Below, piece by piece: positions 24,414-54,760 of a DNA stretch of 64,000 bases. The translations under genes were made by a program, and so were the position numbers. The first letter of the stretch is position 1. Each line of letters begins with the position of its first letter. This DNA comes from a virus. Its lineage: Duplodnaviria > Heunggongvirae > Uroviricota > Caudoviricetes. The notes under the pieces were generated by a model. That model did not search any database. It was not told the origin of the DNA and saw nothing but the letters and a program-made list of their open reading frames with translations. The DNA lies in IMG/VR virus record IMGVR_UViG_2713896798_000008. One strand, written 5' to 3'.

Positions 24414-24974
24414 TTATATACGTCCTTTAAGATAAGTCAGTCCTGGATGAAACCAGTAAGCCGGCACTTTTTTAAAGGGCGGGTTGTCAAACTCACGAAG
24501 AAGAGCCTCCCGCACAACTGCATCCTTGTCAGCACCACTGGCCAGCGCTTCAATCTCAGCAGCTATCTGCAGATATCCCATGCAACGACCAATGCACTTC
24601 ATCAGCCCCTGCTTTTTATTGTTCTTCAGGTAATCAATGGCAAATTCAATGAGCTCCTCACTATGCTGGTGCGATGGCGGTGTTACTTTCCCATTTTCTG
24701 AGATGGTTATTTTCCCAGCATCACCGGATACAACAAAGGATGGCCGGTTACACTCCCATTCCAGCTCACTGAAATTATCATTATGAATACTGAAACACTC
24801 TGAGAGATTTCTGCTCATCACTTTCCGACAATAATCGTCAAACGCAGCAAACTGCTCATCGCGGCGTTTTTTTTCATCTTCAGAAGGCATCAGCGTCGAC
24901 AGTTTTTTATTCAGTTCAGCAATTTCATTTTCCAGACGACTGAAGCGCTGATTCATTTCTTCATGGTTCATCAC
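24414..24974 (-). CDS. hypothetical protein inserted between holin and endolysin (moron)
   Basis: 186 aa; coiled-coil-like N-terminus; occupies the slot held by ydfR in the Qin-like remnant; no family recognised. Confidence 0.5.
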   Translation of the reverse strand: MMNHEEMNQRFSRLENEIAELNKKLSTLMPSEDEKKRRDEQFAAFDDYCRKVMSRNLSECFSIHNDNFSELEWECNRPSFVVSGDAGKITISENGKVTPPSHQHSEELIEFAIDYLKNNKKQGLMKCIGRCMGYLQIAAEIEALASGADKDAVVREALLREFDNPPFKKVPAYWFHPGLTYLKGRI

Positions 24975-25181
24975 CTAATCTCCCCGGGCAGCCTTGCGAC
25001 GGTCCTCTTTAATTTTGAAATACAGGTTAGTCAGATACGTCAGCAGGCCAAACAGCAGACTCCCCAGCACACCTATCGCCACCCACTGGGACGGAGAGAC
25101 TTTGTCCAGCAGCTGCAGTAACCAGTATCCCGTCCCCACCGCTGACGTGGTGTATGACACACCTGTTGTGATTTTTTCCAT
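24975..25181 (-). CDS. S: class II holin (phage 21 S / pinholin family)
   Basis: [42 protein letters not shown]...[13 protein letters not shown] matches the S21/EssD family. Confidence 0.85.
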
Positions 25182-25230
25182 CCGATGTATGTCTCCGTCA
25201 CCGCCGACAGAAAATGAAAGTAAAGAAAAA

Positions 25231-25261
25231 CAAAAAAACCGCCAGTGTCACCCACTGACGG
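25231..25261 (-). terminator. candidate rho-independent terminator immediately upstream of S
   Basis: Hairpin ccgccagtg/cactgacgg (one mismatch) followed by U-run on minus strand. Confidence 0.35.
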
Positions 25262-25360
25262 CCAACTCCGGGAGCCGTGATTATGGCATTCAGGCTCTGC
25301 TAAAAATGCCAGATAACATTCCGGCCCCCCCCTAGTTCAGGTTATAAATGACACAATATC

Positions 25361-25480
25361 TTGACAACATCCGTCACTGTCTGTCAGAAAATATACCGCC
25401 AGGCATAAGTATCATGTGAAATCCAACTATCCTTTTGAGCCAGCACCTCTCCACCGAAAGTCAGTGCTGGCTGTTTTTTT
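25361..25480 (+). ncRNA. sRNA-like module 1 (TTGACA ... hairpin ... T-run); function unknown
   Basis: TTGACA at 25361, hairpin agccagcac/gtgctggct at about 25437-25472, then T7; paralogous to module 2. Confidence 0.25.
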
Positions 25481-25528
25481 CCTTAATAAAGCATCTGTAA
25501 CTGAAACAATCCGCATATTGATAATATA

Positions 25529-25627
25529 TTGACAGGCATCATTGCTGTCTGTGAAAAATAAGTCTCTACAAACATATAAGGCCTTTTAGCCAGCGTCTTC
25601 TTTCAGGTCAGCCGCTGGCTTTTTTTA
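25529..25627 (+). ncRNA. sRNA-like module 2 (paralogue of module 1)
   Basis: TTGACA at 25529, conserved ctgtctgt box, hairpin agccagcg/cgctggct, then T7 ending at nanS-p stop. Confidence 0.25.
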
Positions 25628-27529
25628 TTATGCTGCCGGTGCATTTATCTCCAGCACCAGACTTTCTATCTCAACGCCATACGCTGCATTTTTTGTAACA
25701 TCCGTCAGCGTCAGCGCATTCAGCCCCAGTGTCAGACTGTCTTTTATGACCTGGAATGCCGGGCCAGCCACTCCATTCAGTTTCGGAGTAACCGTGGCAC
25801 TGCCGGCGGTGAACACCAGCTCCAGCGTCTGCCAGTCGTTACCGTAATCGCCGAACTCCCCCAGCTTCGTGTTTCCGGCTTTCCTGTGATGCATCAGATT
25901 CACTCTGCCGTCAGTGGTCTGAGTGAAGTACGACATCAGGAACGGATTACCGGTACCCGTCATCGCCACACCATCAGGAACGGGAGCATCCGTATACAGA
26001 TAAATCCCCAGCCCGAACTGATTGTTGGTCAGTGCGCCTGACAGGCGGAACTTACAGGTCAGTCTGCCGCCCTGTGTCAGCAGGGTAATTGCGTCATCCA
26101 CCGGATGCGTCAGGGACCAGGTTTTATTGCTCTGCTTGGTGATCTTAAATACACCATCTGACAACTGAATTCCGCCATCCTTAATGCTCCAGCCCTGCGC
26201 AGCAGCCTCTCCGGCTGCCGGCAGCAGGGAGATTGTGCGAACGGACGTATCTGCAGACGGACCCGATGGCGTGTTGCCGCCGGGCGAGGGTTTGATTTCC
26301 GGTGCCTTACCACTGATGAAGGCTGAGGTGCGCCCGGCTGCGTTCAGAATAGCGGTTGCCATACGATCCGGAATAATGCTCCTGCGCGCCCATGAACTGA
26401 AATGTGTCGGGCGGTTTGATGATACCTGGTTTCCATTCGTTCTCGATGCCGCACCGTAATATCCTGATGCCGGAATATCCGGATCTTCTGCCGGCGCGTT
26501 AGTGGCGGTATTGACGCCGTTACCGTCTGTCATGAAGGGCACAAAATAAACGCCCTCACTCTCCCTGTTTTTATACCCGCCGTACACGGTGTCGTACTGG
26601 GTAGCGTATGTATTTTTCCAGTAATACGTCGTGTCACCACAAATCCACGGCACATCTGCAGCACTGCCACCATGGCACTGCGCGTTAAACACGGAGAGGT
26701 CAGCACGAAACTGTGTCAGCATGGCTGTAAACAGCGCAGGTTGCTGTGCGTGGGTGGCGGCGCTCATGTCAAACTCTCCCTGCATCCAGCACACCGCCAG
26801 CAACACATTTTTCGGGTTCTTCTGTAATGCAGCTTTGGTGCGCGCAATCAGGTCCTGATATAACGGTTTACCCACACCCCAGCGCGCCGAATCCTGGCTG
26901 GCCCCCGTGTCCGCACTGAATGTCCCCTCCGCGCCCTGGGTAAATGCCGAACCACCACGACAGCATGGTACCAGCAGGATCCCCGCGTTATTCGGGATAT
27001 ACGGGAGCAGTTTTTTGGCAATATGTAACCCCTGGCCGACACAGCCGTACTGCCCTTTGCTCAGGTCTGCCTTCGGATGATTCAGCGTACTCATATCCTG
27101 CACATCATGCAGGCAGTGGTCGGCCGGAATAATATCGTTATATCTGCAGGCAGCCCCACCCGGCGTCACTGTACTGCGGCGCGCCAGCTGCTTAATGCGC
27201 GGGTCCGGACGGTCATATGTCTCCGGCAGCGGAAGGCCTTCACCATATGCCATGCCGTTTGACTGCCCCGCCAGAACCACAACAAAGTAATACTCCGGGT
27301 CTCTGGTGGCGCTGATTACTGTGCCTTCTCCATCCGACGGCTTCACCACAACAGGTGTGCTCACATCACCTTCTGCGACAATCGCCTGAATAAGTGCTGC
27401 GCCATCATCCGTATACGAAGAAAACGGCCCGCCGTATGGCTGCCATCCTTCACGAATTTTTTGAGCAAGCGCATCCGCAAGGTCTGACGGCGACGCCGCC
27501 CTGACCACGTCATAGTGTTTAAATGCCAT
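25628..27529 (-). CDS. nanS-p: prophage sialate O-acetylesterase NanS-p (SGNH/SASA family)
   Basis: 633 aa; GQSN motif (VVVLAGQSNGMAYGE); position between tRNA genes and S as in Stx phages. Confidence 0.8.
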   Translation of the reverse strand: MAFKHYDVVRAASPSDLADALAQKIREGWQPYGGPFSSYTDDGAALIQAIVAEGDVSTPVVVKPSDGEGTVISATRDPEYYFVVVLAGQSNGMAYGEGLPLPETYDRPDPRIKQLARRSTVTPGGAACRYNDIIPADHCLHDVQDMSTLNHPKADLSKGQYGCVGQGLHIAKKLLPYIPNNAGILLVPCCRGGSAFTQGAEGTFSADTGASQDSARWGVGKPLYQDLIARTKAALQKNPKNVLLAVCWMQGEFDMSAATHAQQPALFTAMLTQFRADLSVFNAQCHGGSAADVPWICGDTTYYWKNTYATQYDTVYGGYKNRESEGVYFVPFMTDGNGVNTATNAPAEDPDIPASGYYGAASRTNGNQVSSNRPTHFSSWARRSIIPDRMATAILNAAGRTSAFISGKAPEIKPSPGGNTPSGPSADTSVRTISLLPAAGEAAAQGWSIKDGGIQLSDGVFKITKQSNKTWSLTHPVDDAITLLTQGGRLTCKFRLSGALTNNQFGLGIYLYTDAPVPDGVAMTGTGNPFLMSYFTQTTDGRVNLMHHRKAGNTKLGEFGDYGNDWQTLELVFTAGSATVTPKLNGVAGPAFQVIKDSLTLGLNALTLTDVTKNAAYGVEIESLVLEINAPAA

Positions 27530-28059
27530 GAATCCTCCCGGCCGGGATAATGTTGTGAGTCAGATAAGGGGCGGGCTGAAGTCCGGAAGTTACAGGACAA
27601 TGACAGAAGGAAGACTACAGCCCGCAATACGAAAAAGGCCGCGCAGTTGCGCAGCCTTATAAACCCTGGTTAAAATCCACACGATAAAAATGACAATGCA
27701 AGTATCTCATGCTGTTGCCCGAACCTACTCGGGCTTTTTTTGCATGTAAAAAGGCTCCTGCGATGAGGAGCCTGGATATATGCCTAATCTCTGTATACAG
27801 CATGATGCCGGGTGCCTCCCGGTGAATTCTGCAATGACCAGACAGAATCCGCAACTTGCCTATACAATACGCAACCAAACATCTGTCATTATGCCCCGCC
27901 GCCCAGGGGGATTCATCATGCAGGATTTTTTTAACAAACGCTCAGCATGTCAGGCAACAGTCAACTACCTGAATTGTGAGGCATTTAACATTTCACTGTC
28001 CGGTGTCTTTCCTGTAATAAAAAGCCCGCAAAAGAGAGTCAGGGCAGATAAGTGTGGTG

Positions 28060-51089: not shown

Positions 51090-51360
51090 GATGTTACCGT
51101 AGTATGTGAGTATCCATCGAATAGACACCAAGCAAAAAAGCTCCCGAAGGAGCCTTCATTTTCACTTTTTTAAATCCAACGACAGACGGCTGGCATTTAA
51201 GTATTGTGAAATATTATCAAATGTAATCATCATTGATTTACAAAAGATACATTTTGCCCCGAAAGGATTCATGTCAGAAACATCAAAAGATGATGTTCTA
51301 TACTGGGAACCATGACAACACGGGCATCTAAAGTGAATATGGTTTGTAATATTGTCTACC

Positions 51361-51573
51361 TCAAAGCGCCACTACATGAACAGCGGCAGGACCTTTAGGT
51401 CCGTTCTCAATACCAAATTCAACTTCCTGATTCTCAGTTAATGTTTTGAAATCGTTGCTCTGAATTGCTGAGAAATGGACAAACACATCTTTGCTGCCAT
51501 CTTTCGGCGTGATGAAACCAAAACCTTTTTCAGGGTTAAACCATTTCACTAAACCAGTCATTTTGTTAGACAT
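51361..51573 (-). CDS. cspI: cold-shock protein CspI-like
   Basis: [23 protein letters not shown]... CspA family. Confidence 0.85.
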
Positions 51574-51935
51574 AATTATTACCTTTTGAAGAAATTAGCC
51601 CTTGGGCAGAATGGTCCGAAAAAAAATATCAGAGAGAAAAACCAACAAGGAAATCTCAAGAGGTACAAATAATAAAATTATAACAATGACTGCTTCAGAT
51701 AAATTTGTAACAAACCAGAACACCATTAACGCATGATTAACCACCCATAGCAAGGATTACTTTTGTAAAGAAAAACACAGCAATGAAAGAATGGCTTTAT
51801 TTATTAATAAAACGTGTCATTCTGATTAAGACCTTTTATCTTACCCTTAAGATTTCAGGAATTTTGGCTCATGGAAGAGTCCTTTTTATTTAAATTTTAC
51901 ATTCCGCGATGTAAATGTTCCGATTTAATATTACC

Positions 51936-53271: not shown

Positions 53272-53275
53272 TGGA

Positions 53276-53491
53276 TTACTCTCCTCTCGCAGCCTTACGC
53301 CTGTCTTCTTTAATCTTGAAATAAAGATTTGTCAGATACGTCAGCAGGCCAAAAACCAGGCTACCCAGCACACCGATTGCAGCCCACTGTGACGGAGTTA
53401 CTTTATCGAGTAACTGCAATGCCCAGAAACCAGCATTACCCGCCGATGTGCCATAGGCAACACCTGTTGTTAACTTATCCATTGATTTCAT
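53276..53491 (-). CDS. essQ: class II holin (EssQ/EssD-like, dual-start MKSMDK)
   Basis: [45 protein letters not shown]... Confidence 0.85.
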
Positions 53492-53881: not shown

Positions 53882-54244
53882 TTGATTTTATTAGTAACAA
53901 GTATTTTTTATATTTTAATAATATATTTAAAGCAGATAATAAAAAACCCGCCTGAGCGGGTTTGAGATTGTGGTGCTTTTTGTGGGAGTCATCCACTTAC
54001 GCACTTTGTTTTGCCATGCCAGCAGTTAGCTTCTGCTGTAAAACTATTCATGCAGCAAACCTGCACTTCACCACAATGGTTAGCATACTTTTCCTGATTA
54101 AGATTTTGCCAAATATGCTAGCCATTGTTTCATGTATTGGACCTCCTTACTTTTTATTAAAGAGATCCAATATTCACTACTCTGTCCGTATCTCTACTCA
54201 GGCATCAGCCTTCTTCGTTATCGTATACAGACGAGCGATGAATT

Positions 54245-54460
54245 TTAATCAGTAATGATGACATTTGCTGCTGCAGGACCTTTAGCACCACTCTCTATAG
54301 AGAAGGTAACCTTTTGACCTTCAAATAAGGTTCGATAATTATCATTCTGAATCGCAGAAAAATGCACAAACACATCTTTACTACCATCAACAGGAGAAAT
54401 AAAGCCGAAACCTTTATCAGCGTTAAACCATTTTACTAAACCAGTCATTTTATTTGACAT
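54245..54460 (-). CDS. cspB: cold-shock protein CspB-like
   Basis: [23 protein letters not shown]... Confidence 0.85.
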
Positions 54461-54760
54461 TCTACATTCCTTAACTTGAGCCTTTCGGCATAAATGGTTT
54501 GCATAACAGAAACGACTTCGTACTTAATTGGAGAGACTCAAAGAAGGAATAAGTGAATAACACCTGAAATGAGAACTGCTTTAGTAAACTACTTCGTATA
54601 TCGTCTGTTCTTCAAACCGACGCAATCATTAACGCATAGTTGAACATATGAAGCAATGTTTATTTTAGACATCCAGCCATCTTCAACCCCATCAAAAAAC
54701 TATAGCTTTCTTCAGGAACGTGTGTATAGTGCGCCAAGTTATCAGTATTAAGGAATTTTT

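Follow-up and report, generated by a model that had tools for sequence, protein, structure and literature searches.

The closest described system is PasA (E2348CN_0003), a small RNA of EPEC strain E2348/69 which is encoded on the minus strand of NC_011601.1 between E2348C_0688 and E2348C_0689, has a major form of 85 nt (743499-743415) and a minor isoform of 236 nt (743499 to 743264), and has EcOnc51 and EcOnc52 as homologues (PMC8550237, Table S6). E2348/69 PasA has been validated by Northern blotting, RNA-seq, RIL-seq and Hfq-dependent stability; it is abundant under virulence-inducing conditions, is destabilised without Hfq and has 41 RIL-seq partners, among them bfp and LEE mRNAs (PMC8550237). 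The motif deduced from these targets is CUGRUGCUGG (PMC8550237, supplement), with target sites such as CUGGUGCUGGA in E2348C_1246 and CUGAUGCUGGA in E2348C_0688 (PMC8550237). EcOnc51 and EcOnc52 are Hfq-CRAC peaks at homologous loci of EHEC Sakai (PMC4104026, Table S2), and an Hfq-dependent RNA of about 80-85 nt is known in vivo for the E2348/69 and Sakai homologues (PMC8550237, PMC4104026).

A recent preprint on the distribution of the Pas RNAs places the seed in the terminator stem, distinguishes PasA and PasA-2 as the two common variants, with a common 3' end and divergent first 40 bp, and considers the mature 5' end of PasA to arise by cleavage of a longer transcript; promoters are not discussed (Zhu et al., 10.64898/2026.05.13.724894). 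According to the same preprint, at least 22 kb separates any two pasA copies, tandem duplication is not their origin, and Pas copies are explicitly contrasted with tandem pairs such as OmrA/OmrB (10.64898/2026.05.13.724894).

Two further arrangements invite comparison with the locus described here. OmrA/OmrB of Escherichia coli and PrrF1/PrrF2 of Pseudomonas resemble it as two adjacent homologous modules on the same strand, each with a promoter-like start and a terminator, but the bodies of the modules described here are far more diverged, and the second module's own transcription is a prediction. The PrrF1/PrrF2 pair also gives rise to a read-through RNA, PrrH, which spans both genes, as is the case for the modules of this work. 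AgvB/AsxR and STnc100/EcOnc27 are likewise short Hfq-associated RNAs from the late region of the same prophage class, but have no sequence or model similarity to the modules and occupy another position. AgvB and AsxR are anti-sRNAs which sponge GcvB and FnrS.

The window analysed here is the whole 64,000-nucleotide stretch of IMG/VR virus record IMGVR_UViG_2713896798_000008. We are confident that its interval 25361-25627 is the pasA locus of a lambdoid prophage with a late region of the Stx1-phage/phage 434 type, in which a first module encodes a 5' variant of PasA and a second module is a diverged paralogue of the first.

Results

Locus and flanking genes

The interval lies in a spacer of 447 bp which separates the start of the holin gene (25181) from the stop codon of the esterase gene (25628). 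ORFs and Pfam matches identify the late-operon neighbours, all on the minus strand, as esterase, P21-type holin, lysozyme and Rz, the two genes bordering the spacer being the following.

24975-25181, minus strand: class II (P21-type) holin S (Pfam PF04971, E 7e-33)
25628-27529, minus strand: nanS-p type sialate O-acetylesterase of the late operon (Pfam DUF1737, SASA and DUF6645), convergent with the sRNA modules

Homologues of nanS-p carry the annotation SASA family carbohydrate esterase. An ORF of 186 aa between the holin and lysozyme genes (24414-24974, minus strand) belongs to no Pfam family.

The plus strand of the spacer holds two modules, module 1 at 25361-25480 (120 bp) and module 2 at 25529-25626 (98 bp), the latter followed directly by the nanS-p stop codon (25628-25630). 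The first-pass annotation, made from the sequence alone, had described two plus-strand units that start with TTGACA, share a ctgtctgt box and end in a GC hairpin with a run of seven T, all flanking genes being on the minus strand, and sequence, shuffles and folds bear this out; the unit size of about 100-120 bp given there holds for module 1 and is missed by module 2. The combination TTGACA-N10-CTGTCTGT occurs twice in the 64-kb window, once in each module and both times on the plus strand, compared with 0.04 occurrences in shuffles. Global alignment of module 1 with module 2 reaches a score of 15 versus 2.7 +/- 1.75 for dinucleotide shuffles, 1 of 1000 of which attains 15.

The further statement that no ORF accounts for the modules needs correction, as two mechanically called ORFs of at least 30 aa overlap them, 25416-25532 (plus strand, 38 aa, GTG start) and 25483-25575 (minus strand, 30 aa). 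Both were rejected as genes because homologous loci carry indels of 1-2 nt in T runs and loops which break the frames. The RNA bodies 5' of the hairpins are, in both modules, no more structured than shuffles. An unstructured body ahead of the terminator hairpin is the usual build of Hfq-type sRNAs.

Module 1 as a PasA variant

25396-25480, plus strand: PasA-variant sRNA, 85 nt, with ends mapped from Table S6 of PMC8550237

Window 25396-25480 is identical to E2348/69 PasA at 75 of 85 nt (88%); the 3' 54 nt, seed and terminator included, are unchanged, and the 10 differences are substitutions which all fall within the first 31 nt, a distribution that fits the divergence between PasA and PasA-2 in their first 40 bp. 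The module 1 RNA is probably of the published PasA-2 type. The published PasA Northern probe GCCAGCACTGACTTTCGGTGGAGAG corresponds to window 25447-25471 with 0 mismatches.

The intergenic region of E2348/69 prophage PP2 aligns with the window end to end, from holin to esterase, with both modules present. PasA of PP2 and EcOnc51/EcOnc52 of Sakai Sp12/Sp4 share with the window the locus, the strands, the promoter region, the 85-nt length and the second module downstream. The modules lie between the SASA esterase gene and the genes for the holin (class II) and lysozyme, in the opposite orientation to these, as the PasA family does in E2348/69 PP2 and PP5, and the family seed, CCAGCACC, is found at 25440-25447 in the 5' arm of the module 1 terminator. 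The EcOnc51 peak (Sakai Sp12, 2237479-2237555) covers the 3' half of module 1 and its terminator, the end of which corresponds to 2237535. By transfer from the EPEC and EHEC homologues, module 1 would be expressed as an Hfq-dependent sRNA in this prophage as well.

The first-pass annotation had seen in the modules the architecture of small structured RNA genes or terminator-capped antisense units, and for module 1 the small-RNA reading agrees with a homologous RNA for which Northern, RNA-seq, Hfq-dependence and RIL-seq data exist in EPEC (PMC8550237). It had also found no match to a described element of this prophage class; the region is, in fact, published PasA (EcOnc51/52) together with its read-through extension. 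The element went unmatched because it has neither an Rfam family nor a RefSeq annotation. The scan proposed at that stage, carried out with Rfam 15, gave no gathering-level match and hence no family in 25150-25750, the best matches by E-value (E up to 10) having E 3.5-9, far below threshold; in RefSeq, no annotation lies under the homologous stretches. The sRNA structure is real but already described, and it is absent from Rfam and from genome annotation.

As a separate observation, the first 31-40 nt of the PasA RNA (window 25393-25430) occur as at least three distinct haplotypes among loci that are otherwise 95-98% identical. Given that the promoter segment right before them hardly varies, these haplotypes suggest that the PasA 5' region has diversified or undergone mosaic exchange.

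Terminator hairpins and seeds

25438-25480, plus strand: intrinsic terminator of module 1, with hairpin 25438-25472, then G, then U run 25474-25480
25440-25447, plus strand: PasA seed CCAGCACC in the 5' arm of the module 1 terminator, complementary to the CUGRUGCUGG motif
25588-25626, plus strand: intrinsic terminator of module 2, with hairpin 25588-25620 and U run 25620-25626, abutting the nanS-p stop codon
25237-25263, minus strand: terminator-like hairpin and T run on the late strand, found by terminator scan (11 pairs, then TTTTTGTTTT), with the pasA promoter on one side and the holin RBS on the other

The terminator hairpin of module 1 folds with -16.3 kcal/mol (z -3.2) and that of module 2 with -14.9 kcal/mol (z -4.5), the inner part of the latter being matched by the terminator scan. 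Since the minus-strand folds are also strong (-20.8 and -15.8 kcal/mol) and module 2 abuts the nanS-p stop codon, the hairpins could be thought of as bidirectional or late-strand terminators or insulators of nanS-p, with the TTGACA boxes incidental. We regard this as very improbable: the plus strand alone has T runs behind the hairpins, those of the minus strand being followed by CA... and by AAAA, so that the late strand is without a U run behind either of them; a canonical late-strand terminator exists further on; conservation within the locus is highest in the upstream sequence; and homologues have documented plus-strand RNAs with their ends at these sites (PMC8550237, PMC4104026). Bidirectional nanS-p terminators without conserved upstream sequence, the outcome that the first-pass annotation had set against its own proposal, are accordingly not what the locus presents.

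The same stretch, from the pasA promoter to the holin RBS, contains a second, weaker terminator-like hairpin on the late strand (25308-25325, minus strand). Together with the hairpin at 25237-25263 it may block Q-independent transcription into S-R-Rz. The curated record of phage 434 (OL657226) marks both plus-strand hairpins and one late-strand hairpin, the equivalent of 25237-25263, as terminators.

A consensus hairpin derived from PasA-type, PasC-type and module 2-type 3' ends keeps 4 of its 10 pairs through double, compensatory changes. Of the covariance analysis proposed earlier for homologous prophages, only the cross-paralogue comparison was informative, the loci of each module being 95-98% identical and holding too few changes. 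At the place where module 1 has CCAGCACC, module 2 has the PasC-type CCAGCGUC, with which its target range would differ from that of PasA.

Putative promoter elements

25361-25366, plus strand: -35 hexamer TTGACA of module 1 (pasA promoter), read from sequence
25382-25390, plus strand: TGT and weak -10-like CAGAAA of module 1, a putative extended -10 at 18-nt spacing from the -35
25529-25534, plus strand: -35 hexamer TTGACA of module 2, with the motif and the spacing to CTGTCTGT as in module 1
25550-25558, plus strand: TGT and -10-like GAAAAA of module 2, putative, with 18-nt spacing and the geometry of module 1

The CTGTCTGT box lies at 25377-25384 in module 1 and at 25545-25552 in module 2. 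The published 5' end is the same C in both PasA and PasC, 30 nt past the last base of TTGACA. With a spacer of 18 nt, TGT as extended -10 and a weak hexamer, this offset would fit a sigma-70 promoter, and it is from the geometry relative to the published PasA 5' end that the -10 of module 1 was assigned; the CTGTCTGT box would then supply the TG of the extended -10. A generic sigma-70 scan calls the promoter of neither module because the -10 elements are poor. As alternatives for the CTGTCTGT box, a LexA box (CTG-N10-CAG) and a sigma-E -35/-10 geometry were compared by eye and dismissed, neither giving a fit.

No part of the locus varies less than the upstream promoter segment. Among 26 distinct homologous loci, 25340-25392 is near-invariant, with 3 varying positions between 25370 and 25392, and variation begins at 25393. 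If, as has been proposed (10.64898/2026.05.13.724894), the mature PasA 5' end arises by cleavage, the promoter need not lie at the TTGACA of 25361, and the start of module 2, which is placed by analogy, becomes less secure.

Homologous loci and their architectures

Of complete E. coli genomes, about 13% (699/5426) carry the sRNA family, with up to 8-9 copies per genome, and its carriers are mostly EHEC and EPEC prophages, in which it lies beside toxin and lysis genes. In these genomes module 1 was found at 2859 places, 8 of them on plasmids, and module 2 at 2307 places, 100 of them on plasmids. Matches in the phage search comprised 22 Stx1a-converting phages, H-19B, YYZ-2008 and phage 434. In viral contigs, a degenerate motif scan returned mostly single matches due to chance, and only BLAST-confirmed loci were used.

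The plasmid copies are IS-flanked remnants which start at window 25476 and consist of module 2 and a stub of the esterase gene, without module 1. Examples between IS elements on large virulence-type plasmids are loci L126 (2993-3232 of NZ_CP074922.1) and L127 (2993-3315 of NZ_AP029610.1).

PasC-type loci match the window through 25444 and again from 25584 and are without an equivalent of about 25444-25593; in appearance they are a fusion of module 1 with a terminator of the module 2 type. The junction lies inside a CCTTTT(G/T)AGCCAGC repeat that is common to both modules. A third architecture, seen in locus L081, consists of one module only, whose terminator is of the PasA type and adjoins the esterase stop directly; the terminator stem shows a compensatory change of C:G to U:A. 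In two IMG/VR contigs, L100 and L121, insertions at the equivalent of about 25505-25510 split the modules and leave both intact, module 2 being inverted in L100. The arrangement beside the holin gene is kept in all three architectures.

Module 2

25564-25626, plus strand: predicted module 2 RNA of about 63 nt with PasC-type 3' end, start placed by analogy 30 nt after the -35; also the 3' part of the read-through PasA isoform
25396-25626, plus strand: read-through transcript, 231 nt, counterpart of the published 236-nt minor PasA

To judge from motif and alignment, modules 1 and 2 are paralogues that have diverged but keep one promoter motif, module 2 having a terminator and seed of the PasC type (AGCCAGCG...CGCTGGCU). 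PasC (E2348CN_0005, EPEC PP5) shares with module 2 the stem AGCCAGCG/CGCTGGCT, the run of seven U and, at the border to the esterase stop, the junction TTTTTTTATTATGCTGCCGG, but PasC is a single-unit locus whose promoter is that of module 1 and whose 5' body resembles module 1, and it has a length of 78/79 nt. Module 2 and PasC match at 45 of 57 aligned positions (79%), the alignment covering the 3' 57 nt only, and the PasC Northern probe has no match in the window within 3 mismatches. Both results rule out module 2 as PasC proper; it is PasC-like at its 3' end.

The literature already contains module 2, though solely as the read-through tail of PasA. Window 25396-25626 and E2348/69 743499-743264 are identical at 219 of 236 aligned positions, and position 743264 immediately precedes the esterase stop codon, which means that the 236-nt isoform ends at the module 2 terminator. 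RIL-seq chimeras assigned to pasA.E2348C_0688.IGR in E2348/69 span 743267-743294 (PMC8550237), a segment that maps to the 3' end and terminator of module 2, so that an Hfq-bound RNA ending at this terminator exists in EPEC.

From these data it is possible, if rather doubtful, that module 2 is not a gene of its own but a decaying duplicate whose sole role is that of a fail-safe terminator against PasA read-through antisense into nanS-p, the 231/236-nt RNA being a by-product. The published view is that of a minor read-through isoform (PMC8550237), no separate Hfq-CRAC peak is listed for module 2 in Sakai (PMC4104026), only 24 nt of unstructured body precede its hairpin, and its -10 is poor. A duplicate in decay is, however, difficult to reconcile with a -35, a CTGTCTGT box and an A-rich -10 region whose spacing is identical in the two modules while their bodies are no longer recognisably similar. 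The Hfq-bound chimeras ending at the module 2 terminator, the IS insertions which part the modules and leave module 2 intact, and the promoter segment unchanged in plasmid copies without module 1 speak against it as well. These copies have 0 differences from the window in the 42-nt segment 25522-25563 and 16-17 elsewhere (about 8% of the other positions), in what is one lineage comparison (about p 0.03) at a locus of very low diversity, and their first difference is the predicted start nucleotide of module 2. Promoter motif, plasmid copies and IS insertions favour, if indirectly, module 2 as a transcription unit, and we consider its own transcription, yielding an RNA of about 63 nt, to be probable as well.

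Two candidate identities for module 2 or its copies were discarded. HnrS (EcOnc10/11/12), which at 66 nt is close to the predicted 63 nt, does not apply, as EcOnc10 lies about 3.2 kb from EcOnc51 in Sp12 and the Sakai segment has no BLAST match in the window, with the proviso that the peak coordinates stem from an older genome version and the extracted segment may be offset. The plasmid copies of module 2 are not the EcOnc sRNAs of pO157, which would have proved independent expression, since Sakai pO157 has no copy.

Other RNA matches in the window

Beyond nanS-p, a match to AgvB (27682-27741, plus strand, 56.2 versus a gathering value of 56) abuts a match to STnc100 (27742-27950, minus strand, 175.6 bits), so that nanS-p is flanked by sRNA genes on both sides. 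The STnc100 copy has 80% identity to E2348/69 PasD2 over 50 nt only and is not PasD proper. Further along, the stretches 46941-47139, 51334-51719, 53275-53486 and 54229-54621 hold an IS009 RNA match, two cspA-thermoregulator matches and a holin-like stretch 80% identical to the E2348/69 holin, and point to a second prophage region, probably a cryptic one. The motif scan of the 64-kb window found no Pas-type motif beside this second holin-like stretch.

Discussion

Mechanism and targets

The best-supported reading of the locus is that of trans-acting, Hfq-dependent base pairing, with expression, Hfq dependence, RNA ends and targets taken from the papers on the homologues. A sigma-70-type promoter (TTGACA 25361-25366 with a weak extended -10) would direct synthesis of the 85-nt RNA 25396-25480, which would end at the intrinsic terminator carrying the seed CCAGCACC in its 5' arm. 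Polymerase that passes terminator 1 would halt at the terminator of module 2 and produce a minor isoform of about 236 nt. Both RNAs would be made in the lysogen, from the strand opposite to the Q-dependent late operon, and would act in trans via Hfq on chromosomal, plasmid and prophage mRNAs, any physiological role in this prophage being inferred.

A candidate target lies within the locus itself.

25650-25660, minus strand: CUGGUGCUGGA, complementary to the PasA seed, at the 3' end of the nanS-p mRNA, read from sequence

The 11-mer CUGGUGCUGGA is identical and in the same place in E2348C_1246 and in nanS-p of the window. Unconstrained RNAduplex predictions for PasA or module 2 against the nanS-p 3' end were no different from shuffles, and the site is proposed from the seed match of 8 nt together with the site known from published RIL-seq. 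On the plus strand, the 3' end of nanS-p contains CCAGCACC at 25651-25658 and, 24 nt on, CGCTGCATTTTTT at 25682-25694, which belongs to repeat family D1 together with the 3' arms of both terminators. The stretch 25650-25694 looks like a vestigial third terminator-like repeat, which, read on the mRNA strand, is the PasA-complementary site reported by RIL-seq in EPEC.

Both module RNAs are fully complementary to the late transcript, and they are antisense to it immediately upstream of the holin gene. The main action of the modules might therefore be in cis: leaky S-R-Rz expression would be damped in lysogens, or its timing set after induction, by convergent transcription and by RNAs complementary to the late mRNA between nanS-p and S, with a contribution of the late-strand terminator at 25237-25263. 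The presence of this terminator between the pasA promoter and S, the conservation of the arrangement beside the holin in all three architectures and the late-strand spacer RNA recovered in EPEC RIL-seq as pasA.E2348C_0689.IGR (PMC8550237) would agree with such a role. We nevertheless consider it unlikely, as the 41 trans interactions of PasA are typical of a trans-acting Hfq sRNA (PMC8550237), the module RNAs overlap neither the RBS nor the coding region of S, and module 2 survives on plasmids without a holin.

The most far-reaching proposal would combine a true two-gene tandem with a safety lock in cis. Module 2 would encode its own sRNA of about 63 nt with a PasC seed, and the convergent transcription and antisense RNAs of the pair, together with the late-strand terminator, would keep stx/nanS-p promoter activity off the holin-endolysin genes in lysogens, to be overridden on induction. 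We offer this combination as speculation to which we give little credence, and trans-acting base pairing by PasA stays the reading that we prefer.

Implications

The preprint's statement that pasA copies are at least 22 kb apart and do not arise by tandem duplication indicates that the paralogy of the module downstream of PasA seems to have gone unnoticed. Neither this paralogy nor the PasC-type terminator and seed of module 2, the apparent fusion origin of PasC or the plasmid copies with module 2 only are stated in PMC8550237, PMC4104026 or the preprint. The remaining novelty is modest and consists of what is likely a tandem paralogue, so far unrecognised, with a PasC-type seed and of a recombinational link between PasA-type, PasC-type and tandem loci; no major open question is resolved by the findings on PasA and module 2.

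For the family as a whole, the locus exemplifies an experimentally validated sRNA family that is invisible to Rfam-based annotation. The reading of module 2 as a gene predicts a primary 5' end near 25564 for an RNA of about 63 nt, and if module 2 is a paralogous module, the published view that Pas copies do not arise by tandem duplication would need revision.
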